Source: a virus
Lineage: Duplodnaviria; Caudoviricetes
Direction: 5' to 3' (one strand)
Virus record (IMG/VR): IMGVR_UViG_3300014613_000003
Location: 1-63,101 of that record
Length of the DNA: 63,101 nucleotides
In this document: positions 3,305 through 63,101 of the stretch, piece by piece
Position numbering within the stretch: position 1 is the stretch's first letter
Layout: each line of letters opens with the position of its first letter
Notes under the pieces: generated by a model
Databases searched by the model: none
Told to the model about the DNA's origin: nothing
The model's input: the letters and a program-made list of their open reading frames with translations, nothing else
Program-made: the position numbers and the translations under genes

Positions 3305-3480
3305 TGGCCGGCGTCCGTCGCTATGTACTGCGGTTTGCCGACGGCAAGAAGGCAACCGCACTCGACACCCACGATCGCGACCCCGAGGAACTGATGCGCG
3401 GGGTCACTGACATTTTCCATACCGGCTACGTCGAGAGCATCGAGCCGGTACTACCCAAGCAGGAGCAGCAACATGATTAA
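3304..3480 (+). CDS. Hypothetical protein, 58 aa (MAGVRRYVLRFADGKK...)
   Basis: ATG overlaps the portal stop (TAATG) and the ORF fills the gap to the next gene; below the ORF-track cut-off. Confidence 0.6.
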   Translation: MAGVRRYVLRFADGKKATALDTHDRDPEELMRGVTDIFHTGYVESIEPVLPKQEQQHD

Positions 3481-34900: not shown

Positions 34901-36658
34901 CAGATGTACCTGGAAACCATGCCGGACTTCTCCATGCGCAAGGGCTTCATTCACCGGAAGAAGACGGCCGGCTTCGACCGTGACGCCATGCGTGCCTTTG
35001 CCAGCTCCATGTTCCATAGCTCGTACCAGATCGCCCGACTGAAACACTCGCTGGAAATGAACGAGCTGGTCGAGCAGGTCGAGGAACAGGCCAAGGCCGC
35101 TGCCGATCCGGTGGACGCTATGACCATTGCGAACGAGCTCAGAAAACGCCATGAGTGGGTGATGGCGCCCAAGGGCGGCAAGATCGCGCAGCACATTACA
35201 TCGGCCGCGTTCGTCTATCAGCTGGGCCTGACCCCGGCCGCTGCGCTGGTGAACACCTCGCAAACCTGGATGATGGGTATCCCGATCCTGGGCGCGCGCT
35301 TTGGCAGCGAGACGAAAGCCATGGCGGCGCTGGCCAAGGCGTCCAAGGACTTCGTACAGGGTCGCGGCCACATCGAGAAGACGCTGGAGGGCGACGAAGC
35401 GCTGGCCGCTGCCGAGTTCATCCGCATGGGCTTGTGGGACAAGACTCAATCACATGACTTGGCCGGCGTCGGCGACACCGGCGTGGAATACAACCCGCTG
35501 CGCCATAAGGTGATGGGCTATATCAGCTGGGCGTTCCACAACGCCGAGCGCTACAACCGAGAGGTTACGTCGCTGGCCGCTTACCGCATGGCGCGCGAGA
35601 GCGGCCTGGACCATGAGGCAGCGATCAAGGAATCGGTCGAACTGACCTACACAACCCACTTCGACTATTCGAGCGGCAACCGCGCCCGGTACCTGCAAAA
35701 CGACACGGCCAAGGTCTTGTTCGTGTTCCGCCAGCACTCGATCAACATGCTGGCGCGCCTGGTGATTGATATCCGCGGCGCCATGAAGGGCGAGACACCG
35801 GAGGTCAAGAAGGCCGCCAAGCGTCGTCTGGCGGGCATGTTCTCGATGTTCGCGCTGTTCGCCGGCGCCATGGGCATTCCCGGTATGACGGCCATTCTGG
35901 CGCTGCTGGACCTGTTCGATGACGAAGACGACCCGTGGAGCGCCGAGGACAAGATCAAGCGCAACCTGGTGGAAGCGCTGGGGCCGGACGTGGCCAAGGT
36001 GGTCTTGCACGGTGCCCCCGGTACCGCGCTGGATCTGTCGCTGACCGAGCGTATCGGCATGGGCAGCCTGTGGTTCTGGTCGCCTGGCCGCGAGCTGGAA
36101 GGCAAGGACTCGTATCTGTACTGGATGGAGCAGGTACTGGGCGCTGCGCCGGCGATGGTCAGCAATGCCTTTACCGGCATGAGCATGATCGGCGAGGGCC
36201 ACGTCTGGCGCGGTATCGAGGCGATGATGCCCAAGGCGATCAAGGATGTGATGCGTTCGGGCCGCTACGCGCAGGAAGGCGTACAGACCATGAACGGCGC
36301 GTCCCTGGTCGACGACGTGAGTACCTGGAACCTGATTTCTCAGGCGATGGGCTTCACGCCGGCGCACATTGCCGAGCGCTACGACACCAACAGCGCCTTG
36401 AAGACCGCCGAACAGCACGTCCTGAACGAGCGCCGCAGCATCCTCAACCGTTACGCCATGGCCATGCGTCAGGGCGACAACGAGACGCGCGGCGCGCTGC
36501 TGGAGCGGATCCGCTCGTTCAACGGCCGGTACCCGCAGTACCCCATCACCGGCAAGACCATATCGGCATCGCTCAAGGCCCGCGCGCGCCGTGAGGCTGA
36601 GGCCGAGGGCGGTCTGACGATCAACCGTCGTTTGGAGTTCCTGCGCGACCAGCTGTGA
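22991..36658 (+). CDS. Giant DarB-like polyvalent internal virion protein (ParB-N-like, N6-adenine MTase, SNF2 helicase, zincin-like, ART-like, PLxRFG domains)
   Basis: VLDGHHQW (~25010); NAHYTDP, LEPSMGIGNF, IGNWPF (~27780-28070); AHEVGTGKT (~29885), DEAH (~30425), QRNGRGHRQGN; FHEHYVH (~33010); WFGDSKVVD...LYHGT (~33470); YFPLKRYG (~34635). Confidence 0.9.
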   Translation: MADLKPWEEYAQQQPGSTPALKPWEEYGGTTAPEASGVIDTLKEGTKSAGRAIGSAVNTYTGNADAVVEKAAAQQEAPKDERLANFYSDVEKNSADDSEDAGVLDAVGNVGKAIWDNPAGAGLAVVEQIPNSVPTLAGGFAGMKGGAALGTAVGGPVGAAVGGIAGGLAGMFLGNTAIETGHKAMAAADDGEYTPEEMDQVKREGAIKGGVITGVDALTLGAGGRLAGAMQRTVSTAMESATRKALIDRGVDVADEASVLAARNDPAISAAVRAAQESAVKATDTLKRRAAEAGTLMSMETVGEGVGEYLGELAATGEGNVTDAVLESLLSVGQSGAETVWNMTRKRERPGMWTEAAAIADPTLDQAAPLEDPAVDTSTVQPLPSEGNPAPAPVPRPDPSNGPLSAAAAAMPAAPIAGPLADAVPAAEAVAEQPAAEATVSAEGPLADAPPMNDYAAEQPQAAAEVPATSEPVATPSQRAILTRRGVPVEQIARLSQKAAGDLIKQQNKTQQAGKPEPQQMGLQEPAAVESELREQLGYLERQAKSAGGWTAPLSRERARLRAALEQFGGEQAAKQPAADPIQGQDIDGDWMTFAEQSGTKQVPRANMPQIKAEHRGAMVNFLNARGITHQDESVPAASLKPTQGEFSRKKVEQAKAYTGGNRSILVSSDNHVLDGHHQWLAAREAGEDVKVIRLGAPIEDLLTAAAEFPSSTTAEGATTAQAPEKPAAEQVKAARKPKQEAMPTQAFKSTAGVGDILAVKERYSDDKFGVSWSSTDIASAGSMEEAAAIAKAVAESGADNITDMRAAAAKFRSAAPADQMAVKDAAPATPDAAPVKWFASESKANDFIAKKKLSATHQVVKNGSKYEIQPLAEQQGDLIVQQPPVVEPTPAAEPVVEQVEEAAKAPEPSVEAAEQDTDSQKPAVPSDAELELASRHKKIDKTLDLMDDAQITDLYARANLAGAATPVEQKRKILSQEHPDDIEPLLKPKAEPAAKAPEPETAPESTSIAVRSIRAGKQLALALEAIGFTKIEGTNGMKHVVEGAGRAATTSVRPIRTDDQIQFQVSSVTTSMQDGRMKSAAPGMTETFDSMDEAVALAAQWQEVNRKWVRDAVAPSGTAQAADTGVPIEDARKSDKLRQARKMGLDAYNAGEERTPPAWMGEGDIADAWLVGFGDGIAANLQRNMDAAKEQEKVAAPDLAQQLAGMSNAALSSLIDDIAAEDAQVADTAKPAPKRKRKTQPKAKDATPKPRSTTSPAESADETDAADVERTAGEIAKSFGYNVSSAGMEAIKGLTELFGGSGKLSSGLTFDEETYAKAKPHFQAMLRDAQAAGHDLAQFVRTVLQSFGTGVKPYIIRYANDLRDEVAQPQENTNGTDSTQPAVDRGNPAGVPGAAGGRGNDAQSGSAPADSDGVASGEPENVGEPGAGGTDDAAGLRPAKPDVDGNGRAAGAGRAGNGREGTGRAKPSDDGARADRSPSVTPTKAPAEVSPGNPGPGNFHVADPLKIVGGGQVARFDKNRAAIDLYNDLRAEGRPATREEQETLAGYTGWGSFGQELFQGSWAHPAPKSGWEARDSWLRDNLGQTEWEGLQRSITNAHYTDPPTVMAMWEMVKRMGFDGGRVLEPSMGIGNFFGMMPADLKARSQLAGIELDPVTGGMAKLLYPEANVQVKGYQDSKTPDGFYDLVIGNWPFEDTVIADRRYQRLNPYLHDYFFLKAVDQARAGGLVVGITSKGSMDKKSIGIRAELAKKAELVASFRLPSGAFKEYAGTSVVTDIVILRKRPEPVRNISDAGWIESVDYKTPSGETVSINEYYVKNPQNVIGTIDFGHGTTFKRPGMIVHRPDNMAEQLVRITAMAPEGAFQPERQAKTVSYVANHTDDRENSLIRTKDGLFVVRGEYLAPAVDVLSYKIKNEATNAQREDQLDRLITLRKQYAALIDAQRTGDAKTERKALKASYDAFVAKHGTINGSYGLKYLQRIDDPFYASLAALEIQGKDGALVPSAIMSKATTRGALNIQSPSITDAYVLARNQSINPTIEQVAELAKKPAAEVKAELLAKGAVFELPSGDVVPADIYLSGNVREKLRDAKAAVAEGLAQLQSNVAALEKVVPADVPYYKIEAQMGASWVSTGIYAEYVAHMLNLTTPDGIDVSYSNGRWKIKLPKGANNRAEASAGFGTREVPFSRLVNAAITNQTINITRKGSDGKSYNDPEATKEVNGKISEIRQRFGEWLWSDPERRSAVEREYNDARNAYATPNFDGSVLGFEGMALSLGNGPFDLRKHQMDAIWRALVMRRSLNAHEVGTGKTFTMGGIAVESRRYGIAKKPLILAHNANSKSVAAEIQMMYPAAKVLYIDNLSPDTVDIKLRQIANDDWDAVVLPHSLIDRLAFKEETLMAIAYEEIRELEIAAAEAAAEDGVDLTKEMLDDEKALEKLRSVTAKDLVKTRNKIINTIKKQAQQASREGATAFEDLGIDMVLVDEAHEFKKPPFSTQMKMKGLQTQSSNRSIALAFLTKYIRTNNAGGNVHLFTGTPITNTLTEVFHQMRYIMQEEMEAAGVDQWDGWFGSFAREVTDVELNAAAEYEAVTRLSAFINVPELRRMIGQYMDVVFADDMPEMKPRRTATGKLLSDSDLTEAERAELLNGRTEQAKDRPYKKVIVDTADLTDEQKIEFQKIQGYARAWRNMSGKERKQAMNAGDPESPIIYENLAGKASFDVRLNRGAELAGQEGRVPDTDDSKSSRVIRNVLEIYGSHPLATQVIFAQQGLSTTATKSVGPVGDKRKVTYKTFSTMRDMVERLVQQGIPREQIAIVDGSTSKDKRKAIADAMNRAEIRVVIGSSQSLGVGVNMQRNLRAMHHMDAPWMPGDLEQRNGRGHRQGNQWNTVLEYRYLTDRLDGRRWQVLAIKQRFITAFLKANDADRVIEGDAAGEEESDILETFAEAAGDPRILVREKLNKKIDQLQSRERLHGQAVSDARRSLRITRERRDEQRAKLKALDDAGVVEAVEALTKATMGAGFTMTVDGTEYDTRKDAEAAIAAFAEEHVRTGDKRQHSVGNFGGHALSLSWPQWADQPVMTVDINGTPLSSRSLRMQSLETALRGYPEEIQKQRNEVVEAARTLTRLEQVAAEPFHMAADLERAKKDYELLEKDLEQNPVPPPAWLRSGVPVDTEVTWKNKTFVVTGHRWNKDGWFVLAADAKGNVVIPYTEARDAQGMAIYEERAFEAPEVVTKDNPAGLTEADRVPEDSGVRLSRAGGRPSGATRVSYLDRRTVEQLAVEAVGEATARDRFVFTSYADLPEDVKAEATRQGAAPRTVQGLYSPKHNKTFIIDDRFTSADEAKGIMFHEHYVHFGLRAKYGLQLGPQLRQLLNGVGGLDGIRKLSREQGINLAAYERGILGNPEIAASKQPLILMEELLAHIGETTGSLRRLLEEFVGMLRAWARKARSNWFAELGVTDMAYVLREARNAAKQADRAPKGQPMFKLAGGVDQTGTDAFQRWFGDSKVVDKQGEPRVLYHGTANDFTVFENRSGNSTGHATSDLGYFMTTERSSAEGYARNASDGMPGLSKVMELYASIKNPYTATLAEMQAIENPLQARRFRAKLEQAGHDGIHIPAQKAWVAFANYQIKSATDNVGTFDDFDADIRFSLAGGFLGRREPFELTARNAKRSLKGRLADLKPALLGALPLTYMRDFAPQSMTALSAYMDEKRAMDADRNEMHTRYDAIAQRWLKLRWTDRKAEQRLADLMHSATLEGVDPSKPIKDSYTPEQKATYNRLRMQYQSLPEGHRAMFGDARDAYKQQVTTLEGVIEENIRKSAEYAKKRARRDRDADIERAKDELTGDELDEALEAADKRYNGRVASAEQGGSAKILLLRQKFESMRVDEPYFPLKRYGEYFVALRDGDELVSFSMFESAADMEAAAAELRKTYPSLDVKVGRQSNKQELEGAVDPAFIADLQDVVSRMPNSKELSDQIYQMYLETMPDFSMRKGFIHRKKTAGFDRDAMRAFASSMFHSSYQIARLKHSLEMNELVEQVEEQAKAAADPVDAMTIANELRKRHEWVMAPKGGKIAQHITSAAFVYQLGLTPAAALVNTSQTWMMGIPILGARFGSETKAMAALAKASKDFVQGRGHIEKTLEGDEALAAAEFIRMGLWDKTQSHDLAGVGDTGVEYNPLRHKVMGYISWAFHNAERYNREVTSLAAYRMARESGLDHEAAIKESVELTYTTHFDYSSGNRARYLQNDTAKVLFVFRQHSINMLARLVIDIRGAMKGETPEVKKAAKRRLAGMFSMFALFAGAMGIPGMTAILALLDLFDDEDDPWSAEDKIKRNLVEALGPDVAKVVLHGAPGTALDLSLTERIGMGSLWFWSPGRELEGKDSYLYWMEQVLGAAPAMVSNAFTGMSMIGEGHVWRGIEAMMPKAIKDVMRSGRYAQEGVQTMNGASLVDDVSTWNLISQAMGFTPAHIAERYDTNSALKTAEQHVLNERRSILNRYAMAMRQGDNETRGALLERIRSFNGRYPQYPITGKTISASLKARARREAEAEGGLTINRRLEFLRDQL
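27114..27434 (+). CDS. Nested (overprinted) 106-aa helical protein in the +1 frame of the giant gene
   Basis: AGGAG 7 nt before the ATG; high GC3 in this frame while the host frame turns low-complexity with A/T-ending codons. Confidence 0.75.
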   Translation: MAQTALSPQWIAEIRQEYQALLADEETMHNRDLHRRILTAWRLESPKMWANLARAGLTTPLAYVLQNRMWTEMDELLGQGVPVTDAKEQAERNHLMMEPEQTEAQA

Positions 36659-54988: not shown

Positions 54989-55002
54989 CGGCAGGGGCGG
55001 CT

Positions 55003-55206
55003 ATGACAGAGCAAACGGTATGCGCGAGCACGACACGCATCACGCTGGGCGAGGAGACGCTGACGGCGATCGAGTGGGCAGCGCGGCGCGGCTTGAAGTG
55101 GCAGACGGTGCGTATGCGCCGGTACCGCGGCGAAGGCTGGACCGAGGCGCTAAGCCCTGGCCTGCGGAAAACCCGCTGGATGAACGGGCTCAGCATGGGG
55201 CGCTGA
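55003..55206 (+). CDS. Small HTH-like DNA-binding protein in the Q position
   Basis: ITLGEETLTAIEWAARRGLKWQTVRMRRYRG.GW..AL resembles HNH-associated DNA-binding domains. Confidence 0.6.
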   Translation: MTEQTVCASTTRITLGEETLTAIEWAARRGLKWQTVRMRRYRGEGWTEALSPGLRKTRWMNGLSMGR

Positions 55207-55221
55207 TTTCATTGGGCAGGC

Positions 55222-55249
55222 TTGCCAGGGCGGGCAAGTCACATAGGTT
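55222..55249 (+). promoter_or_regulatory. Late-type promoter copy 5 (TTGCCA-N16-TAGGTT), lysis operon
   Basis: AGTCACATAG conserved at the same spacing. Confidence 0.75.
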
Positions 55250-55313
55250 GGCGCTGCCAGCTGCCGGAACGGGTAGGGATGGCGCCCCCATTCACCGACA
55301 GGACACCGCCGCG

Positions 55314-55592
55314 ATGGCAGAACCCATCCCCCTCACGCTGGCAGCAGGCGACAAGGTTATGAATTACACAAGCTATGCGGGCGCCGTCGTCAGTGTGACT
55401 ACGGGTGTGACCCTGACGGAATGGGGCATTATCGTCGGTATCCTTACCGCCACGCTGACCTTCGTCGCCAATATGGTCTACCAGGCGCGCAAGGATCGCC
55501 GCGAGCAACAGCGCCACGAACTGCTGATGCAAAACATCAAGCGGCAGGCCATGGGCGAAGCCTTCGACGCCCTGGATGGTGGCGGCAAATGA
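55314..55592 (+). CDS. Holin (HP1-like)
   Basis: Hydrophobic segments LTEWGIIVGILTATLTFVANMVY followed by a basic tail; precedes the endolysin. Confidence 0.8.
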   Translation: MAEPIPLTLAAGDKVMNYTSYAGAVVSVTTGVTLTEWGIIVGILTATLTFVANMVYQARKDRREQQRHELLMQNIKRQAMGEAFDALDGGGK

Positions 55593-56122
55593 AGCGCACG
55601 CGGCAGGCGGTGGCCGTGCTGACACTGAGCCTGGCCGGCTTCACGGCCTGGGTAGGCTCCGAAGGCTTCACGCCGGCGCCGGTGATCCCGACCAGGGGTG
55701 ACGTACCGACTATCGGCCACGGGTCCACGCGCTACGAAGACGGCACGCCGGTGCGGATGGACGACCCGCCGATTACCCGCGAGCGCGCCGCCCAGCTGGC
55801 CCGCAACCTCCATAGCGAGGAAGAACGCCGCTTCCGTGCGTCCCTGCCGGGCGTTGATCTGTTCCAAGAAGAATACGACCTGTACCTGGATTTCACCGGG
55901 CAGTACGGCATCGGCAATTGGCGCGCGTCGTCCATGCGCCGCAACCTGCTGGTCGGCGATTACGTGGCCGCCTGTGGCTCGCTGCTGCAATGGCGCAAGG
56001 CGGGCGGCTATGACTGCTCCACGCTGGTGAACGGCAAGCCCAATCGGCGCTGCTGGGGCGTGTGGGAGCGCCAGGTTAAGCGCCATGCGCAGTGCATGGC
56101 TGTTCAGGAGGGTGCGCAATGA
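55589..56122 (+). CDS. SAR endolysin, GH24 lysozyme
   Basis: N-terminal SAR helix, EG...GDVPTIGHGST catalytic motif. Confidence 0.9.
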   Translation: MKRTRQAVAVLTLSLAGFTAWVGSEGFTPAPVIPTRGDVPTIGHGSTRYEDGTPVRMDDPPITRERAAQLARNLHSEEERRFRASLPGVDLFQEEYDLYLDFTGQYGIGNWRASSMRRNLLVGDYVAACGSLLQWRKAGGYDCSTLVNGKPNRRCWGVWERQVKRHAQCMAVQEGAQ

Positions 56123-56241
56123 TCCTGGCGGCGATGATCGTCACGCTGGCTGACTACCTGCTGTGCGGCCTGTCCGCCGAGGCGCAGGCGATCCGTTTCC
56201 GCGCCCAGCTGGCCTATCTGCGGAGGCCGTCCCGGTGGTGA
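56119..56241 (+). CDS. Small 40-aa hydrophobic protein in the lysis cassette
   Basis: AGGAGG RBS; ATGA and GTGA coupling on both sides. Confidence 0.5.
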   Translation: MILAAMIVTLADYLLCGLSAEAQAIRFRAQLAYLRRPSRW

Positions 56242-56612
56242 TCGACAAGCTGCGCCTGCTGGCCTATGCGGTGCTGACCGTCGCCGGCCTGGCCGTCGGC
56301 TGGAACGTGCGCGGCTGGAAGGAAGGCTATGACGCCAGCGCTCGCCTGGAGGCCAAGCAGGAGGCCGAAGACCTGGCGCGCAGCCTGATTGCCGGCATCA
56401 GCCGCGAGACGCTGGAGGCGATCGGCCAGATCCGCATCGAGCACAAGACCATCCACACGAAGGCCGTCCATGAAATCGAGTCGAATACTGTGTATCGCGA
56501 TTGCCGCATCCCTGCTACAGGCATGCAGCTCGCCAACGAGGCGCGAACCAGTGCCAATCGACGAAGGGCTGTTACAGCCGTGCCCGCCGATACCGCTGAT
56601 TCCCGTCGCTGA
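56238..56612 (+). CDS. i-spanin (Rz-like)
   Basis: N-terminal TM helix, coiled coil, Cys near the C-terminus. Confidence 0.8.
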   Translation: MIDKLRLLAYAVLTVAGLAVGWNVRGWKEGYDASARLEAKQEAEDLARSLIAGISRETLEAIGQIRIEHKTIHTKAVHEIESNTVYRDCRIPATGMQLANEARTSANRRRAVTAVPADTADSRR

Positions 56613-56730
56613 GGATGGCACCGCGCCGCTGGGTGCGCTGCTACTGGAGGACGTAGACCTGGCCGGACTGTACGCCGAGTGCGCCACGGGCAAGGACGGG
56701 CTGATCGAGGCCATCCGATCGCGTCAATAG
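56470..56730 (+). CDS. o-spanin lipoprotein (Rz1-like), overlapping
   Basis: MKSSRILCIAIAASLLQAC lipobox; Pro-rich. Confidence 0.8.
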   Translation: MKSSRILCIAIAASLLQACSSPTRREPVPIDEGLLQPCPPIPLIPVAEDGTAPLGALLLEDVDLAGLYAECATGKDGLIEAIRSRQ

Positions 56731-56732
56731 TG

Positions 56733-56763
56733 TTGACGATAGTCATTCGACAATCATATGATT
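56733..56763 (+). promoter_or_regulatory. Sigma70 promoter with the AATCATATGATT palindrome over its -10
   Basis: TTGACG-N18-TATGAT; palindrome 56752-56763 also present at 36792-36803. Confidence 0.7.
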
Positions 56764-56838
56764 CCCATCGGTAGCGCAACGCTACCAACCCACTGAAGAA
56801 GCCGGGCAACCGCCACGGCATGCGCAGAGGTATCCCGC

Positions 56839-57363
56839 ATGACCCATCACGTCCGTACCGTCGCCGCGCCGAACTACACCGTCACCCCGATGGACGAGTT
56901 CGTCAGCCTCGAAGTCCACAACGATCTGATCATTGCCCGCGCCCTGGAAATACTGCGCGAGCGCCTGCATAAGCCGGGCGCCGCGCTGGAAAGCCCGCAA
57001 GCGGTGCGTGATTACCTGCGCCTGAGCCTGGCTGCCGAGAAAAGCGAGCGGTTCGGTTGCCTGTTTCTCGACTCCCGGCACCGGGTTATCGCCCTGGATC
57101 TGATGTTTCAGGGGTCGATCGACGGTGCCAGCGTCTACCCGCGCGAAGTGGTCAAGGCCGCACTGGCCCACAATGCAGCGGCGGTGGCGCTGGTGCATAA
57201 CCACCCGTCCGGCGACGTGGATCCGAGTCGGGCTGACCGCACCCTGACAAGCAAGCTGAAGGAGGCGCTGGCGCTGATCGACGTGCGCGTGCTCGACCAT
57301 TTCATTGTGGGCGGTGCCGGGAATGCGGACGTGCTCAGTTTTGCCGAGCGGGGGTACCTCTAA
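56839..57363 (+). CDS. radC: RadC/JAB-domain protein
   Basis: E.FGCLFLD...[10 protein letters not shown]...[14 protein letters not shown]...LDHFIVG. Confidence 0.93.
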
Positions 57364-57365
57364 CC

Positions 57366-57680
57366 ATGCACACCCTTATTCCACTATGTGAGGCCTGTAC
57401 TTTGGCTATCAAACGATCCTTTTACCTGGCCGACGCGCCGGCTGAGTTCCTGGGCGAACTCAGCAGCAAGCGAATCAACCAGGTGGTCGAGCGCTATTCC
57501 ACTCTCGTTAAGAGCGAGCGCGTCGACGAGTTGCTTACGACTGCCGAGTGGTCCGAGCTGTTCAAGCTGCCTGACCCGATCGACCCCGCCGCACTGCCCG
57601 AACGCCTGTCATGCGTACAGCGCCTGGCCGTGCTGGAAGTGCTCGAATCCATCCATCGCCGCAAAGGAAAGCCCCAATGA
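57366..57680 (+). CDS. Putative RHH-like regulator
   Basis: KRSFYL...LSSKRINQVVERY...TTAEW pattern. Confidence 0.5.
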   Translation: MHTLIPLCEACTLAIKRSFYLADAPAEFLGELSSKRINQVVERYSTLVKSERVDELLTTAEWSELFKLPDPIDPAALPERLSCVQRLAVLEVLESIHRRKGKPQ

Positions 57681-58066
57681 CCGACCAGGAAACAAAAGAA
57701 GCGCTACGGGTGCGCGATCGCATGCTGGCTCAGTTCGCCGAGCGCAAGGCGCTGGCCGTCGAGCTGATGCGCGAAGTGGGCACGCTGCGCGGGCAGAACT
57801 ACGTGCTGGTCCACGTCGAGTCCACGGCCGCCCTGGAGCGCCGCCCGTCCGGCAAATACGGCTACGCCCCGACCCGTGGCGACCTGGTGGGTACCCTGCA
57901 CCTGGACCACGGGCGCGCATCGTCGAATGCGGACGTGTGGAATACCGCTAACCCCGATCGCCCGGTACGCATCATCACCCGCCGCGAGCTGCTGGAGGAA
58001 ATCGTGGCCGAGTGCGACGAGATACTTGCGATGCTCGGTAAGACCCTGGAGGTTTCCCATGCGTGA
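57677..58066 (+). CDS. Hypothetical protein
   Basis: AAGGA RBS, coupled. Confidence 0.65.
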   Translation: MTDQETKEALRVRDRMLAQFAERKALAVELMREVGTLRGQNYVLVHVESTAALERRPSGKYGYAPTRGDLVGTLHLDHGRASSNADVWNTANPDRPVRIITRRELLEEIVAECDEILAMLGKTLEVSHA

Positions 58067-58886
58067 CACACCGAAGATGCCGGCAGAGTGTGAATGGCCT
58101 ACTTGCGAGTGCGCGCTTGACCCTGATAAATGCAAGGTGCAATCGGTAGAGCCAGCCCCGGCGCAGGATGAGCGGGAGGCGCCGACTGTGGTCGCAACCG
58201 CGATTCTCGGCGGGCTTTTTCATGGCGGCTCTGGACCGGAGCTTGGGGAAATAGATATTGAAGTCTGCACGTCAGCGCTTGAGAAGATTCAGTGCGAGAC
58301 GGTGAATAGCTCCGATGACGCTTTCTTGCCGCTGATGACCGTCGCCCAGCACGAACGCATCGTCGCCGCACTCACACGCCCCGCGCAGACCGAGCAGCAG
58401 CCGGATGGCGAAGCTGTCGAGATCGTCGCTAGCGCCATTGACGGCCCGTGCCGCGAGGTTGAGTCGATAGATGATATGGCGCAGATCATCTGCGGACAGC
58501 TGGCAGAGGCGGGCTTTTTGCGGGTTAGAAAATCGGAAGCCGCCAACTTTGCGGCGCCGATAGCTGGCGTGCTGTGCCGCTTCGGCCTAAGTCGTGATGA
58601 TGCCGAGGCGCTCGGAGCAGAGCTTGCGATCGCCTTGATCCCACACCTTGCCCAGTGGGACGAAGACCATCACGCCGCCCCAATCGCGCAGACCGCCCCG
58701 CAGCCGGAGCAGAGCGGGCTGCCTGATCCTCGCCAGTGGACCGATCAGCAGGTGCTTGACTTCCTCGGCGTAGCGTTGCGCAACGTGGATGTGGTCGGGA
58801 CCGTACACCTCAACGAGATCCGGCAGGGCTTCGAGCTGGTCATGGGTCGCCCCTCTCTGCCCGATCAAGGGGGTGCCCGTGAGTAG
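58059..58886 (+). CDS. Mosaic hypothetical protein
   Basis: VEPAPAQDER, PLMTVAQHERIV and AAPIAQTAPQPEQSGL linker modules typical of Pseudomonas phage mosaic genes. Confidence 0.65.
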   Translation: MRDTPKMPAECEWPTCECALDPDKCKVQSVEPAPAQDEREAPTVVATAILGGLFHGGSGPELGEIDIEVCTSALEKIQCETVNSSDDAFLPLMTVAQHERIVAALTRPAQTEQQPDGEAVEIVASAIDGPCREVESIDDMAQIICGQLAEAGFLRVRKSEAANFAAPIAGVLCRFGLSRDDAEALGAELAIALIPHLAQWDEDHHAAPIAQTAPQPEQSGLPDPRQWTDQQVLDFLGVALRNVDVVGTVHLNEIRQGFELVMGRPSLPDQGGARE

Positions 58887-59283
58887 CAAAGCACTCAGTG
58901 CGATCATCCGCCACGAACTGGCAGCGCAGGAGGTCGCCGCCCTGACCCGTCGCATAGGCGTGAAGCTGGGGCACTGCCCGATCAGCAGGACGCCTGCCGA
59001 CAACGAGTGGATGCTCGACGAAAAGGGCCGTCTCAAAACGCACCTTTGGCAAGCGTTCAACCATCGGGAACCGAGCGATTGCGGTTACGGGGAGGTGGGC
59101 CTTGGCGAAGACGGCATCGCCGACGCCTTGAGCCGTGGCAGTGAGTTTGCTTGCCGCCACTGCAAGCGCGCCTATCAGCTCATCCTGCGCCGGAAAAAGG
59201 CCAGGCAGGAGCTGGGTAATGCACGGCGGGCAATCCGCACTATCGGGCGCTTCGCCCTGGCTGCCCAAGGAGGCGCCCAATGA
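58879..59283 (+). CDS. Hypothetical protein
   Basis: Coupled ORF, CRHC, basic C-terminus. Confidence 0.6.
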   Translation: MSSKALSAIIRHELAAQEVAALTRRIGVKLGHCPISRTPADNEWMLDEKGRLKTHLWQAFNHREPSDCGYGEVGLGEDGIADALSRGSEFACRHCKRAYQLILRRKKARQELGNARRAIRTIGRFALAAQGGAQ

Positions 59284-59594
59284 TCCGCTTCATCGTTCAA
59301 CGCCACGAGCAGGACCATAACAGCGGCCTGGAGCGCCGCGACTTCGTGACCCTCGACGCTAGCGTGCCGGAGCTGGAGCAGCTGCTGCGCAAAGGCGGTC
59401 GCGGCGAAATGGGCTTCGAGCACTACCAGCTGCTCGGGGTTGAGCTGCTGGAGCCGGCGCCCGAGGCGCTGCCTTACTGGGAGCCATGCAATCCCGGCTG
59501 CGATCCAGAGTTCAACGGGGAGCGCAGCCGGAACTGTGCAACCCTTTGCCATAACGCACGCAACGCCCTCTCCACCCAACGAGGTGAGGCATGA
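59280..59594 (+). CDS. Hypothetical protein
   Basis: AGGAGG RBS, coupled. Confidence 0.6.
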   Translation: MIRFIVQRHEQDHNSGLERRDFVTLDASVPELEQLLRKGGRGEMGFEHYQLLGVELLEPAPEALPYWEPCNPGCDPEFNGERSRNCATLCHNARNALSTQRGEA

Positions 59595-59800
59595 GCGAAG
59601 TTGCAGAAATGTACCGTGGCATGAAAGACCACCGGAAGCTCCTGCGCGCGCGTTTTGGCGTGAAGTGCCCCGAATGCGTCCGACTGCTGCCAAAGGCCAA
59701 TGCAACGATTCTCCTGCCGCAGCAGCGGTGCCGAATCCATGGGTTTCGGGACGCTCGGCCGGAGCTTACGCAGGAGGACTACGACAGCCTCGCAGAGTAG
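59591..59800 (+). CDS. Small Zn-binding hypothetical protein
   Basis: GAGG RBS; CPEC...CRIH. Confidence 0.6.
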   Translation: MSEVAEMYRGMKDHRKLLRARFGVKCPECVRLLPKANATILLPQQRCRIHGFRDARPELTQEDYDSLAE

Positions 59801-59809
59801 ATAAAACGC

Positions 59810-59838
59810 TTGACGACTGTTCCGAACAGGAACATTAT
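59810..59838 (+). promoter_or_regulatory. Sigma70 promoter with inverted-repeat operator TGTTCC-N5-GGAACA
   Basis: TTGACG-N17-CATTAT; inverted repeat at 59818-59834. Confidence 0.7.
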
Positions 59839-59893
59839 TCAAGTCCCCAGGGGAGCGCACGCAGCGCGCCCCGACTCCCGAAAGGATGACCCG

Positions 59894-60526
59894 ATGAAAG
59901 CCTTCAACCACGCCACCATCCACGCCGAATACCACGCGCTGTACGCCGACGACTTGTTCGTCCGGCTGGCCGCTTGGGACGCCGAGCAAGAGCGTCAGAT
60001 GCGCGAATGCATGAGCGACCGCGATAACTACGACCTGGACGGCGTTCGCGCCGTGGTGGTGACCTGGCGCGAAGTGTGCCCAAACGGCAATGCCCATCGC
60101 GTAGCGCAGGCGGTGCTCGCTGAGCGCCTGGCCGAGGACGCCAGCGCTCGGACGCATCATGTACTTGCCGGCCGTAGCTTCGTCATCGCCATAGAGTTCG
60201 AGGACACCGACGAAGGCACTCGCGAGGCAAACAGTTTCATGGAAAGGCACCCAAGCGTCGGCGTGCTGGAGGTTGTCGACGGTCGCGTGATCCTGGCGTG
60301 GAAGGAGGACAAGGGCGAGCCCGTCGGCCCAATCCGCCGGATGCTGTGCTCATGCTGCGGCGCCGTGACACCGGGGCGGCAGTGGCGCAACCGGGACACA
60401 GGCTACGGACTGTGCGTGGCGTGCATCGACTACTGCGCTAAGCGCACCGAGCCGGGCGAGTTCGCGCGCACCTACGGGCACCGCGGCGTCCATTACGACG
60501 TATTGCCACAAGGAAGCGCCGAGTGA
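59894..60526 (+). CDS. Hypothetical protein, candidate anti-defence (Acr-like context)
   Basis: AAGGA RBS; first gene behind the operator-containing promoter; C-terminal CSCCG...CVAC. Confidence 0.65.
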   Translation: MKAFNHATIHAEYHALYADDLFVRLAAWDAEQERQMRECMSDRDNYDLDGVRAVVVTWREVCPNGNAHRVAQAVLAERLAEDASARTHHVLAGRSFVIAIEFEDTDEGTREANSFMERHPSVGVLEVVDGRVILAWKEDKGEPVGPIRRMLCSCCGAVTPGRQWRNRDTGYGLCVACIDYCAKRTEPGEFARTYGHRGVHYDVLPQGSAE

Positions 60527-60804
60527 CCATTACCCGCTACACCCCGCCGACGCCCGCCCAGCTCGCACAGCTGAAAAAGGCGCTCGGCCGCAACAGCAAC
60601 CAGATGGCCGAACTCGCCGGCCTGGCCAACGGTGGCCACTGGCGCAAGTACACGGGCGGCGCCGACCCGCGCACCCTCACAAAGCAGATGCACTTCTACA
60701 TGGCCGCCCAGCTGGTGCTCAGCCCGAGCGCGCTGGAGAGCATCACTGCGTGTATGCGGGAGCAGGGCGCCTACGTAGAGACGGACAAGGGGACTACCGC
60801 GTGA
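60523..60804 (+). CDS. XRE-type HTH repressor, Aca-like
   Basis: PTPAQLAQLKKALGRNSNQMAELAGLANGGHWRKYTGG. Confidence 0.75.
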   Translation: MTITRYTPPTPAQLAQLKKALGRNSNQMAELAGLANGGHWRKYTGGADPRTLTKQMHFYMAAQLVLSPSALESITACMREQGAYVETDKGTTA

Positions 60805-61211
60805 AAAACCTGATCGAATGGGAATCCAACCGTCGCCTGGACGACGATCTACACCGGCACTTCGAGGAGTTCGGCCGCTGGGAGTGGGCCGAGACTGCAA
60901 TGGAGTGGCACCGCGTCCATAACCTGATGTTCCAGGCGCCGTTAGAGCTTGAATCGCCGTCTATGTACCTGGCGTCGGCAGCTGTCGCACAAGGGCATTA
61001 CGGAGCAGTGGCAGGCATTGCGGCAGCGCTAGGCGTAGATGCCAGCATCCTTGCGATCGCGGTTGCCGGCTGGTACGAGAATCAAGACAGCCCGCCGGCA
61101 GCGATTGGATTCGAGGGGCTGCGGGATAAGTGCGAGGCAATACGCCGGAAGCGGCTACAGGAAGCCACAGCAGTCGAGCTCGCCACCAACCAGGAAGGAA
61201 AGAGCCAATGA
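60801..61211 (+). CDS. Hypothetical protein
   Basis: GTGA-coupled ORF. Confidence 0.6.
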   Translation: MKNLIEWESNRRLDDDLHRHFEEFGRWEWAETAMEWHRVHNLMFQAPLELESPSMYLASAAVAQGHYGAVAGIAAALGVDASILAIAVAGWYENQDSPPAAIGFEGLRDKCEAIRRKRLQEATAVELATNQEGKSQ

Positions 61212-61465
61212 AGCACATGAACCTACGCCAGCGGCAAGCCGTCGCAGCCAAGCAGGTAATGGCCTGGAACGCCAAGCACCCGATCGGCGTCACCGTCAGC
61301 TATGAGGAAATCCAAGGGGAGGGCGAAACACACCGCGGCGCCACCATCACCGATGCGCAGGTACTGAGCGGCCACACGGCTGTTATCTGGATCGAGGGTA
61401 AGAGCGGCTGCGTATGCCTGGACCATTGCACTGTAGTGCCGGACGATCAGGAGGGCGCACTGTGA
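61208..61465 (+). CDS. Hypothetical protein
   Basis: WNAKHPIG..V.Y...LSGHTAVIWIEG.SGCV.L. Confidence 0.65.
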   Translation: MKHMNLRQRQAVAAKQVMAWNAKHPIGVTVSYEEIQGEGETHRGATITDAQVLSGHTAVIWIEGKSGCVCLDHCTVVPDDQEGAL

Positions 61466-61902
61466 GCGCTCGCGACGAGCTAGCCGAGCGCATCATGCTG
61501 GCGATGCTGCCGCAGGTGTACGACTACGAGGAAGGGCGCAGCGACACCCAGGAAGCCCGGTTCCGCAATGTGGCGCGAGACGCCTACATGATGGCCGACG
61601 CGATGGAGTACGTGCGGCAGGAGGAGCAGGAGGCAGAAGTACCCGAGGTAACCGCGCCGACCCTGCCGGCCGCAACGCCCGTAGGGCCAGAGGACGACGT
61701 TGGGGCGCTGGAGCTGCCCGCCAGGGTAGCGAACCAGCTGCGGAGTTATGGTGTCACCACGGTTGCGCAACTGATCGAGCGAAGCGCGGTTGATCTGCTC
61801 AAGCTGCCTAACCTGGGCAGCAGATCCCTGCGAGTCATCGAGAGCAAGCTACGGCATAGAGGTATGAGCCTGGCCGCCAGGTACGAGCCTGGTAGGTTCT
61901 GA
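61462..61902 (+). CDS. Protein with an RNA polymerase alpha C-terminal domain
   Basis: LELPARVANQLRSYGVTTVAQL....DLLKLPNLGSRSLRVI...L...GMSL matches the alpha-CTD pattern. Confidence 0.85.
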   Translation: MSARDELAERIMLAMLPQVYDYEEGRSDTQEARFRNVARDAYMMADAMEYVRQEEQEAEVPEVTAPTLPAATPVGPEDDVGALELPARVANQLRSYGVTTVAQLIERSAVDLLKLPNLGSRSLRVIESKLRHRGMSLAARYEPGRF

Positions 61903-61920
61903 CGCAGCCACCAGTAACCA

Positions 61921-61945
61921 AGCCCGCCGATGTGCGGGCTTTTTT
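61921..61945 (+). terminator. Rho-independent terminator
   Basis: AGCCCGC-cgatgt-GCGGGCT followed by a T-tract. Confidence 0.85.
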
Positions 61946-61975
61946 GTGGGTGCGCACTGGTGCGCAAGGTACTCA

Positions 61976-62003
61976 TTGCGCACCGTCCGGAGTCACATAG
62001 CGT
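61976..62003 (+). promoter_or_regulatory. Late-type promoter copy 6 (TTGCGC-N16-TAGCGT), packaging operon
   Basis: Conserved motif upstream of terS. Confidence 0.75.
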
Positions 62004-62033
62004 TCCGGTCATCGATTCGCAGTAGAGGCACCG

Positions 62034-62702
62034 ATGACCACCACCACCCCCAATAAGCCAGGCAGTACAGCTACGCCCGATTGGGACCGTATCGAGCTGG
62101 ACTATCGGGCTGGAATCAAGAGCCTGCGCCAGATGGCGGGCGAGCATGAGATTTCCGAGGGTGCGATCCGTAAGCGTGCAAAGCGCGACGACTGGACCCG
62201 TGACCTGTCCGAGCGCATCCAGGCAAAGGCCGAACAGCTGGTACGCACTGAGGCGGTACGCAGCGAGGTACGCACGGAAAAGAGCATTTCCGAACGCCAG
62301 GTTGTAGACGCCAATGCGCAGGGCATGGCCGACGTACTGCTAGGCCACCGCCGCGACATTCAGCGCAGCAAAAGCATCGTCATGCGCCTGCTGGACGAGC
62401 TGGAGCAGCAGACCGGCCTGGAGAACGCCGCGCTACTCGACGAGCTGGGCGAGCTGCTGCGATCGGAGGACGACAAAGGCCAGGACAAGCTCAACGACCT
62501 ATACCGCAAAATCATCAGCCTGCCCGAGCGTGCCAGGACCATGAAGACACTGGCCGACTCGCTGCGTGTCACCGTCGATATGCAACGCCAGGCGTTCGGC
62601 ATGGATGCCAAAGGCGCCACACCGGAAAGCGGATCCGGTACCGCACGTATTGGCATCGAGTTCGTCACAGCTCCCCAGCGGCCAGAGGATGACGACGAAT
62701 GA
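62034..62702 (+). CDS. terS: Terminase small subunit
   Basis: PDWDRIELDYRAGIKSLRQMAGEHEISEGAIRKRAKRDDW HTH; directly upstream of terL. Confidence 0.88.
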   Translation: MTTTTPNKPGSTATPDWDRIELDYRAGIKSLRQMAGEHEISEGAIRKRAKRDDWTRDLSERIQAKAEQLVRTEAVRSEVRTEKSISERQVVDANAQGMADVLLGHRRDIQRSKSIVMRLLDELEQQTGLENAALLDELGELLRSEDDKGQDKLNDLYRKIISLPERARTMKTLADSLRVTVDMQRQAFGMDAKGATPESGSGTARIGIEFVTAPQRPEDDDE

Positions 62703-63101
62703 GCCTGTCCGCGCGCCACGCATACGGAGACGCCCCGTTCGCCAAGCTGCAACTACCTGAGAAGCTGGCACCGCTATTCCAGGCGCGCCGCTACAAGGTA
62801 ATGCACGGCGGTCGCGGTGGTGGTAAGTCCTGGTCCGTTGCTGGCGTGCTGCTGGCGATGGGCGCCGACCGGCCGCTGCGCATCCTCTGTGCGCGTGAAA
62901 TCCAGAAGTCCATGAAGGACTCGGTTCATCGCCTGCTCAAGGACCAGATCGTCAAGCTGGGCCTTGAATCGTTCTACAACGTGCTGGACACCGAGATTCG
63001 TGGCGCCAACGGCACGCTGATTCTGTTCAGCGGCCTGCAATCGCACACCGTCGACTCGATCAAGTCGTTCGAGGGCGTCGACATCGTGTGGGTCGAGGAA
63101 G
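62699..63101 (+). CDS. terL: Terminase large subunit, 5' part
   Basis: ATGA overlap with terS; RYKVMHGGRGGGKS Walker A; continues at the window start. Confidence 0.95.
   Translation, partial: MSLSARHAYGDAPFAKLQLPEKLAPLFQARRYKVMHGGRGGGKSWSVAGVLLAMGADRPLRILCAREIQKSMKDSVHRLLKDQIVKLGLESFYNVLDTEIRGANGTLILFSGLQSHTVDSIKSFEGVDIVWVEE
62979..63101. repeat. Terminal direct repeat (copy 2)
   Basis: Identical to 1-123. Confidence 0.95.

Follow-up and report, generated by a model that had tools for sequence, protein, structure and literature searches.

A putative self-repressed accessory operon of a temperate phage, with a regulator and promoter layout resembling those of Aca1 and AcrIF24

Aca-type repressors are the main guilt-by-association handle for anti-CRISPR (Acr) and other anti-defense genes, and their operons are the systems with which we compare an operon of five genes (C to G) at positions 59810 to 61941 of virus record IMGVR_UViG_3300014613_000003, the whole stretch of 63,101 nucleotides (nt) being referred to as the window. 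According to the excerpts of PMC9638941 used here, acrIF23-acrIF24 has the promoter TTGCAT-N17-TATAGT, and AcrIF24 binds and represses through a 17-nt repeat, TAGCTCGATTCGAGCTA, placed "almost perfectly between" the two hexamers (PMC9638941). In PMC13551039, the operator is placed in the promoter for the Aca1, Aca2, Aca10, and Aca12 operons, and these operons are described as carrying an RNA hairpin of about 20 nt straight after the transcriptional start site, which ends about 20 nt before the start codon. The hairpin is built of a lower stem of 3 bp, which is conserved, unpaired bases, and an upper stem of 3 bp, which covaries; Aca1 binds it, and Aca proteins often govern adjoining operons and non-acr cargo (PMC13551039). 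The reference proteins Aca1 to Aca10 are 60 to 125 amino acids (aa) long, each with a Pfam helix-turn-helix (HTH) type, in the portion of PMC9410906 containing Table 1. In the record of phage JBD30, the acrIF1-aca1 promoter stretch reads TTGCGA-AT-TAGGCACAATGTGCCTA-ATCTA.

In a first-pass annotation made from the sequence alone, positions 59810 to 60804 had been read as an acr-aca-like locus. Comparative evidence upheld the regulatory half of that reading, and family, PDB, and fold searches gave no match to back anti-CRISPR cargo. We consider it likely that a complete temperate phage of 63.1 kb carries here an accessory ("moron") operon that is self-contained and represses itself, with cargo that acts on the host or on competitors. 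The regulatory reading, which pairs a distant Aca1/AcrIF24-type repressor with an operator located in the spacer of the promoter and a leader hairpin of the Aca style, is well supported by comparison with related loci. The features of the operon are as follows.

59810-59838, + strand: promoter of sigma-70 type, TTGACG, 17-nt spacer, CATTAT (consensus scan, relatives' alignment)
59818-59834: operator palindrome TGTTCC-GAACA-GGAACA, 17 nt, within the spacer; putative site of an HTH dimer
59850-59872, + strand: leader hairpin GGGG-A-GCGC/ACGCA/GCGC-G-CCCC (minimum-energy fold, covariation, RNAalifold)
59894-60526, + strand: gene C, 210 aa, modules N, M, and Z (open reading frame list, homologue modules)
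59894-60142, + strand: module N of C, helical, residues 1 to 83
60155-60328, + strand: module M of C, alpha/beta, residues 88 to 145
60329-60502, + strand: module Z of C, four-cysteine zinc ribbon, residues 146 to 203
60523-60804, + strand: gene D, 93-aa HTH protein, putative autorepressor with an Aca1/AcrIF24/Aca10-like fold
60801-61211, + strand: gene E, 136 aa, start overlapping the stop of D (GTGA)
61208-61465, + strand: gene F, 85 aa, phrog_9165
61462-61902, + strand: gene G, 146 aa, C-terminal half homologous to the C-terminal domain of the RNA polymerase alpha subunit (alpha-CTD)
61920-61941, + strand: hairpin (8 pairs, 6 of them G-C) and T run resembling an intrinsic terminator; putative end of the operon

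The coupling of the HTH gene to gene C that had been noted before is a 4-nt overlap, the stop of C and the start of D sharing GTGA, and across all five genes every start overlaps the preceding stop by 4 nt. The ATG of C has AAGGA upstream. The operon's own terminator at 61920 to 61941 supports its being self-contained. The leader hairpin, the continuation of the coupled genes to G, and the terminator are features beyond those listed in the first-pass annotation.

The TTGACG-N17-CATTAT promoter was recovered by a consensus scan, with 9 of 12 consensus matches in its hexamers (TTGACG at 59810 to 59815, CATTAT at 59833 to 59838). Three promoter-like sites were observed in the region from 55000 to 63101 (1.9 ± 1.3 in shuffled sequences), which is not significant alone; since promoter and terminator counts were not above chance for this region, consensus matches alone carry little weight. 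The perfect inverted repeat TGTTCC-N5-GGAACA across the spacer, likewise reported earlier, is present at 59818 to 59834; even when 1 mismatch is allowed, no other such site occurs in the record of 63,101 bases. By chance, 0.09 sites were expected, and 8 of 100 shuffles contained at least one match (up to 1 mismatch). A second palindrome, CTGTTC-C-GAACAG, overlaps the operator.

Loci related to D were collected from 274 viral contigs (best 80 kept), from 104 species genomes (best 80 kept), and from one metagenome; the 104 loci were obtained with a profile, a scan of genome contigs with the single D protein having returned nothing. Three of the relatives, L001 and L002 (HTH 79% identical to D) and the metagenome locus L227 (81%), share the operator of the window. 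At the five sites concerned (window, L001, L002, and twice in L227), the half-sites are identical, and the central 5 nt take four forms, GAACA in the window compared with GCATA, TATGC, and GTATC among the relatives; the sites of L001 and L002 are identical to each other. The two operators of L227 (1444 to 1460 and 2612 to 2628) each have their own hairpin leader, one copy standing before a 159-aa gene and a RadC-like gene and the other before a zinc-ribbon gene and the HTH gene, and one regulator apparently controls two cassettes there.

Beyond these relatives, the palindrome differs by subgroup of the WRKYTGG HTH family: TAGCACC-AAA-GGGGCTA, TAGGCCCA-A-TGGGCCTA, TGTACC-TTAAG-GGTACA, AGACCC-AAA-GGGTCT, and, in the window, TGTTCC-N5-GGAACA. 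One subgroup has TAGGCCCAATGGGCCTA where JBD30 has TAGGCACAATGTGCCTA, 15 of 17 bases being identical and the two differing positions symmetric. We grouped distinct promoter-protein pairs by the six residues that precede the invariant W of the HTH. Proteins with LSDGRQ had TAGGCC..GGCCTA operators in 10 of 10 distinct rows, those with VAGGQQ had operators of the TAGC(C/A)C..G(T/G)GCTA type (11/11), and those with VASNSQ had TAGC..GCTA-type operators (22/26, the other 4 without a called palindrome of at least 5). Both LANGGH proteins (window and L001) had TGTTCC..GGAACA, the window row being scripted as the overlapping CTGTTC-C-GAACAG, and a clean palindrome was missing in 9 of the 10 rows with LAQGAQ. 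As a cognate protein-site pair would predict, operator type appears to track the residues just before WRKYTGG; because the rows are related, this grouping is not an independent test. The closest relatives, in which the half-sites are kept and the central 5 nt differ, are more telling.

The leader was compared in the same way. Forty distinct promoter-leader stretches were aligned with the window's own, the JBD30 acrIF1 promoter forming the 41st row. The columns had a common order: −35 hexamer, 1 or 2 bases, a roughly 17-nt palindrome, −10 hexamer, a gap of about 10 nt, hairpin, a ribosome site of the CCCGAAAGGA type, and start codon. With the structure drawn from the window row, and with relatedness of the rows inflating the numbers, 82.3% of cells were paired in the 41 promoters, compared with 33 to 44% when partners were slid by 1 to 3 columns; the covariation score was 0.275, compared with at most 0.107 when slid, and 0 of 500 shuffles reached the paired or the covariation value. 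Of the 6 palindrome positions, 4 had changed on both sides, as had 5 of the 8 hairpin pairs, and 86.5% of hairpin cells were paired across the 41 leaders. RNAalifold, which is independent of the drawn structure, returned a hairpin of 3 plus 3 pairs in which two unpaired bases separate the two sets and the loop is 5 nt long, with compensatory change in 4 of the 6 pairs. In the window, the hairpin at 59850 to 59872 is the minimum-energy fold of 59845 to 59900 and ends 21 nt before the ATG of C. An Rfam scan of 55000 to 63101 gave no family for the leader and two subthreshold matches elsewhere.

D had been likened by eye to Aca1/AcrIF24-type HTH proteins on account of its WRKYTGG recognition region, and profile and structure comparisons bear this out at a distance. 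No model matched D in Pfam (E up to 0.1), PADLOC, or NCBIfam, and in PHROGs only the unnamed phrog_20491 did. In a large protein collection, 90 relatives were found at an E value of ≤0.001 among 94 candidates, those with names being mostly labeled "XRE family transcriptional regulator." Residues W40, R41, K42, Y43, and G45 were invariant in 46 aligned homologues. When the profile of these 46 sequences was compared with all PDB chains, Aca3 came first (E = 0.026), followed by an unnamed HTH protein (E = 0.034) and three AcrIF24 entries (E = 0.16 to 0.29). The alignment with AcrIF24 (residues 154 to 228) spans the whole domain, PPT...FRKYTAG in AcrIF24 corresponding to PPT...WRKYTGG. With the single D sequence, Aca3 was matched at an E value of 0.24 from helix 1 to the recognition helix. 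Aca1 chains were not among the matches of PDB sequence searches with D or the profile (E up to 10), nor did the profile match solved Aca2, Aca10, Aca7, or Aca11 (E up to 10). Compared directly with JBD30 Aca1, the profile gave an hhalign E value of 7e-4 but a probability of 26% over 29 columns, and BLASTP with D gave an E value of 0.001 over just 28 residues; the relation of D to Aca1 would be remote homology at best.

The AlphaFold2 model of D has five helices and a mean predicted local distance difference test (pLDDT) score of 90.5. Foldseek ranked AcrIF24 (0.95), Aca10 (0.97), and Aca1 (0.75) highest by probability. In VIA-align, the Z score was 7.5 for Aca10 (root mean square deviation of 2.0, 57 of 57 residues), 6.3 to 6.6 for AcrIF24, 5.5 for Aca2, and 5.0 to 5.3 for Aca1 (25% identity over 65 residues); the antitoxins MqsA (5.7) and HigA2 (5.4) fell in the same range. 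Taken together, these weak matches set D closest to the small HTH repressors of the Aca1/AcrIF24/Aca10 group. D lies outside any described Aca family searched and seems to belong to a new Aca1/AcrIF24-like regulator family that drives an accessory cassette, with Aca4, Aca5, Aca6, Aca8, Aca9, Aca12, and Aca13 outside the direct comparison.

What this family usually controls was surveyed by script in 160 loci. In 95 of them, the first gene behind the promoter encodes a protein of 51 to 72 aa that is coiled in its N-terminal half and has a membrane helix at its C terminus. Of nine loci scored as "other," six are accounted for by three small membrane proteins of the same kind that fall just short of the hydrophobicity cut, two truncated calls, and one miscall. 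That leaves L001 and L002, whose cargo is different, and L216, whose protein is soluble and 86 aa long. The small membrane proteins are "hypothetical" in all sources, with an occasional "FtsB" label, and match only unnamed PHROGs; one cluster of them is found on at least 1,000 contigs, its named members coming from Salmonella, Citrobacter, and other enterics. In 77 of the 78 distinct gaps, the small membrane-protein gene is separated from the HTH gene by a G+C-rich hairpin. Genes 3′ of the HTH gene are very varied (100 proteins in 65 clusters). By Pfam, the gene directly after the HTH gene belonged to Acyl_transf_3 in 21 of 80 viral loci; 3 loci had hexapeptide acetyltransferases, and 1 had a family-25 glycosyltransferase. 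Other loci of the family run into packaging genes, like the window. In annotated phages, the membrane-protein/HTH pair lies in an accessory region by genes of OafA-type or SGNH proteins, integrase, lysis, or tail fibers; in Serratia phage BZS1 and Burkholderia phage phiE131, its neighbors are OafA-type and SGNH genes, close to the attachment site or to genes for tail fibers.

Homologue neighborhoods depart from the first-pass annotation in the usual partners, which are the membrane protein and enzymes that modify lipopolysaccharide (LPS); because of these partners, the family is not specifically anti-CRISPR associated. As a whole, it has the look of a regulator for cassettes of lysogenic conversion or exclusion rather than specifically of an anti-CRISPR companion.

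As a module in its own right, the arrangement is widespread in prophages of Gamma- and Betaproteobacteria (L003 to L080 and L148 to L224; for example, L034, 3698 to 5319), in the order operator promoter, hairpin leader, membrane protein, G+C-rich hairpin, WRKYTGG HTH, and variable cargo, often Acyl_transf_3. No account of it surfaced among the papers listed by a full-text literature search. Of 5,426 complete Escherichia coli genomes, 268 have an unannotated stretch that shares about 68% identity with part of an enterobacterial WRKYTGG HTH gene; one such locus, L086 (NZ_CP033401.1, 1473313 to 1473533), lies in a decayed prophage beside an IS1 and an McrBC-type system and is uninformative.

In the window, the first cargo protein, C, is a mosaic, as had been suggested when it was described as two or three fused modules ending in a zinc finger: its homologues bear modules N, M, and Z apart or in other combinations. 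Module N recurs joined to other tails, M also occurs alone, and Z, with the cysteine pattern CxCC...CxxC, occurs alone or fused to many partners; M+Z is found elsewhere as a free-standing protein of 119 to 130 aa. In the Pseudomonas phages USP_18 and 8P, such a protein is the product of the final gene, the USP_18 gene being without a TGTTCC-type promoter and without an HTH gene. Clusters matching C at an E value of ≤0.001 numbered 719, and of the best 150 most align to Z alone. In L001, three other genes take the place of C behind the same promoter. The first of its cargo proteins (3036 to 3377) has an N part in common with P0102, where it is fused to M+Z, and a C-terminal "CPEDDDYAGLPNEDG..." tail in common with P0092, where the tail replaces Z after N+M.

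The model of C had pLDDT values of >90 for residues from about 90 to 205 (M+Z), the helical N part being weaker. C matched no Pfam (E up to 0.1), PADLOC, or NCBIfam model, including the Ogr/Delta and Com zinc-finger models. A wide VIA-align search with the model gave no Z score of ≥5, its rows covering the N-terminal helices only and M+Z barely; BFVD returned only a 130-aa relative of C itself, and the nearest clusters to module Z in the Protein Atlas were unnamed viral hypothetical proteins without a family. The Fur family, to which the best Foldseek rows against PDB pointed (E = 0.05, TM score of 0.12), was not trusted. Genes with module Z were found in 59 other viral loci and never with a WRKYTGG HTH; their neighbors were mixed (ParB-like nucleases and methylases, integrases, recombination genes, one anti-restriction PHROG), and these neighborhoods give no functional lead.

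The remaining cargo was similarly sparse in matches. In scans of C, D, E, and F against PHROGs, Pfam, PADLOC, and NCBIfam, only unnamed PHROGs were matched, except for the label of phrog_5527 ("transcriptional regulator"), a weaker match of F than phrog_9165. E had no Pfam, PHROG, PADLOC, NCBIfam, or PDB match, and PDB sequence searches with C (profile), E, and F gave nothing usable. In G, a 60-residue part that matches the end of phrog_2201 precedes the alpha-CTD, which was matched by Pfam PF03118 (E = 2.8e-11), PDB alpha-CTD chains (E = 7e-10 to 2e-9), and NCBIfam rpoA models; PADLOC matched G alone, weakly, through the alpha-CTD region. This free-standing phage alpha-CTD could be a decoy or could bind UP elements. 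E, F, and G are missing in the closest relatives, in which a small open reading frame and a terminator separate the HTH gene from the small terminase gene, terS.

The operon closes a run of small genes, mostly without an assigned function, between the lysis genes (about 55.4 to 56.6 kb) and terS, which starts at 62034 (PHROG 1206, E = 5e-68); packaging and structural genes begin 130 nt downstream. The 63,101-base record is the whole virus genome, has direct terminal repeats, and is estimated to be complete, and its gene layout is of the integrase type. Directly upstream of the promoter, a 69-aa gene (59591 to 59800) encodes a CxxC...C motif with a subthreshold match to the Mu Com zinc ribbon (E = 0.027); this gene is 91% conserved in L001 and L002, where the cargo behind the promoter is not conserved. 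Elsewhere in the window, a RadC-like gene with a JAB domain lies at 56839 to 57363 (Pfam RadC, 1e-42). It is preceded, in the region 56733 to 57363, by a second promoter-like site, TTGACG-18-TATGAT (10/12), which is followed by the hairpin GGTAGCGCAACGCTACC and is without the TGTTCC operator. A single open reading frame of 4,555 aa occupies 22991 to 36658 on the + strand.

In the mechanism that we propose, transcription would start at a strong sigma-70 promoter whose spacer is filled by TGTTCC-N5-GGAACA, and D, the product of the second gene, would bind this palindrome as a dimer and shut the promoter by occluding RNA polymerase. As D would occlude its own promoter, the operon would fire while the DNA is free of repressor and then settle at a low set level. 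The transcript would open with the conserved hairpin, of the kind that Aca1 and Aca2 bind in their own leaders, which may add translational control, and the cargo proteins C, E, F, and G would have the host or competing elements as their targets. The comparison of loci shows the operator and the hairpin, the way in which both covary with the protein, and the swapping of cargo among relatives. Several observations weigh against this reading. The promoter pattern was not matched in 56 of the 160 loci, some of them cut at contig ends, and the hairpin alone is unexceptional for its G+C-rich composition (z = −1.59; 13 of 200 shuffles fold as well). Every sequence match to an Aca protein is weak (E = 0.026 or worse against PDB), Foldseek with the D model gave no match at an E value of ≤0.001, and VIA-align Z scores of 5 to 7.5 are common for small helical domains, HigA and MqsA antitoxins and C-proteins being near at 4 to 5.7. 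No cargo protein resembles a known anti-defense or defense protein in Pfam, PHROGs, PADLOC, NCBIfam, or PDB, and DNA binding, dimer formation, repression, and RNA binding by D are all predictions.

For the cargo, a counter-defense role of C, E, F, and G is possible, though we would sooner doubt it than assume it. That role includes a true acr-aca operon, in which C, and perhaps E or F, would bind a host Cas effector and D would be an Aca protein silencing a strong early promoter. The architecture and HTH relationships do match those of proven acr-aca operons, the cargo is swapped behind a conserved promoter and HTH gene, the proteins are small and unannotated, and in L227 the operator also precedes an operon with a RadC-like gene, RadC genes often lying within anti-restriction regions of mobile elements. 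However, the first-pass proposal that 59894 to 60526 and perhaps 60801 to 61465 encode anti-CRISPR or other anti-defense proteins found no backing in any family, PDB, or, for C, fold match, since C, E, and F were without similarity to any solved protein in PDB searches, Acr structures included. No known Acr was recognized among the window cargo in these searches, which included no dedicated Acr profile search, nor among the Pfam- or PHROG-annotated cargo of related loci, where most cargo is unannotated and no dedicated Acr search was made. The usual cargo of the 160 family loci is a small membrane protein with LPS-modifying enzymes and not acr-like genes, and none of the 59 other viral loci with module Z has a WRKYTGG HTH; an acr-aca operon proper is improbable. 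Cargo exchange behind a fixed promoter and regulator is what anti-defense islands show, and here the socket mostly holds a membrane protein and surface-modifying enzymes. Such partners would fit a cassette for exclusion or lysogenic conversion, in which D keeps expression low and steady in the lysogen and the cargo blocks other phages or alters the surface or physiology of the cell. A tail-anchored membrane protein of 51 to 72 aa comes first in about 95 of the 160 loci; LPS acyltransferases, acetyltransferases, and a glycosyltransferase follow the HTH gene in viral loci, the pairs of BZS1 and phiE131 stand beside OafA-type and SGNH genes, and the window operon, with its own promoter and terminator inside the late region, is moron-like. 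LPS acyltransferases are lysogenic-conversion cargo. The window lineage has, however, lost the membrane protein and has no surface-modifying enzyme, its C, E, F, and G look cytoplasmic (zinc ribbon, alpha-CTD-like domain, no hydrophobic stretch noted), and PADLOC models were unmatched save for the weak ones in the alpha-CTD region of G; we rate this explanation as rather unlikely for the window.

A toxin-antitoxin-like pair, with D as an antitoxin-repressor of the HigA/MqsA type and the upstream gene as the toxin, would account for the fold matches of D to MqsA (Z score of 5.7), HigA2 (5.4), and other antitoxins and for a gene order, toxin first and HTH second, that is that of HigBA in the excerpted part of PMC9410906; small membrane proteins can, moreover, be toxic. 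It is nonetheless hardly credible here, since the upstream gene is freely exchanged between relatives and shows no fixed toxin pairing, C matches no toxin family in Pfam, PADLOC, or NCBIfam, three further genes follow D in the operon, and the hairpin that separates the upstream gene from the HTH gene in 77 of the 78 distinct gaps argues against a fixed ratio of their products. Very unlikely, too, is an operon for phage transcription control, in which D, F, and the alpha-CTD-like G would redirect host RNA polymerase, for example, to packaging and structural genes. Although G bears a true alpha-CTD homologue, F weakly matches a PHROG annotated "transcriptional regulator," and the operon ends just before terS, the sole D operator in the genome is at its own promoter, and the absence of E, F, and G from the closest relatives, in which terS almost directly follows D, marks them as dispensable. 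In a further reading, the WRKYTGG HTHs would be a new, large Aca1/AcrIF24 branch (274 viral contigs, representative genomes of 104 proteobacterial species) whose promoter-operator-hairpin chassis is a general phage accessory-gene socket, holding mostly a membrane protein and surface enzymes and here new counter-defense or host-takeover proteins (the zinc-ribbon protein and an alpha-CTD that could be a decoy for host regulators); we put this forward as speculative and on balance unlikely. For the operon as a whole, a self-repressed accessory cassette of a temperate phage remains the reading that we prefer.

If D is an autorepressor, the signature of operator plus hairpin becomes a search key for hundreds of cassettes, and an Aca-like neighbor alone is shown to be no evidence for anti-CRISPR, this being a widespread HTH family with an Aca-style operator and leader hairpin that yet mostly controls membrane proteins and LPS acyltransferases. 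Modules N, M, and Z, the tail-anchored protein, and the phage alpha-CTD would likewise become testable subjects. Were the chassis indeed a general socket, the Aca paradigm would extend well beyond anti-CRISPR, and the socket would guide to many effectors.

Compared with named systems, D is best matched in structure by Aca10 of Pseudomonas citronellolis (Z score of 7.5; Foldseek probability of 0.97), from which it differs in sequence (19% identity, no sequence-level match) and in length, Aca10 having about 65 aa in the part of PMC9410906 with Table 1. Aca3 of Neisseria is the top PDB sequence match (profile E = 0.026), a value below family threshold, and has the Pfam types HTH_XRE/HTH_3 in the same source (PMC9410906), whereas D has none; the Pfam HTH types given there for the reference Aca proteins likewise find no counterpart in D. 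With AcrIF24, D shares an HTH domain that aligns end to end and the position of second gene of the operon; in the excerpted PMC9638941, moreover, a 17-nt inverted repeat fills a 17-nt spacer, the same design as in the window promoter. AcrIF24 differs in being a 228-aa protein whose head and wing domains bind the Csy complex; D corresponds to the HTH domain alone.

Aca1 of JBD30 is, like D, a small all-helical HTH protein with a 17-nt palindrome between the −35 and −10 hexamers of its operon, and the leaders of Aca1 operons, as described in PMC13551039, share the hairpin design of two 3-bp stems, the upper one covarying, on either side of unpaired bases. Aca1 has 79 aa compared with the 93 of D, which has an extra C-terminal helix, and sequence similarity is marginal; the operator sequence differs as well, and the window operon has no recognized acr gene. 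Two hallmarks of the Aca1 family can nevertheless be located in the window. The operator lies within the operon's own core promoter (59818 to 59834), where binding by D is predicted, and the hairpin ends 21 nt before the start codon, close to the approximately 20 nt in the excerpts of PMC13551039, so that RNA binding is predicted as well. The Aca-type autoregulated layout claimed at the outset is recognizable, the spacer palindrome standing as in the AcrIF24 promoter (excerpts of PMC9638941) and the JBD30 acrIF1-aca1 promoter, and the window locus fits the layout points of the acrIF24, JBD30, and PMC13551039 Aca operons.

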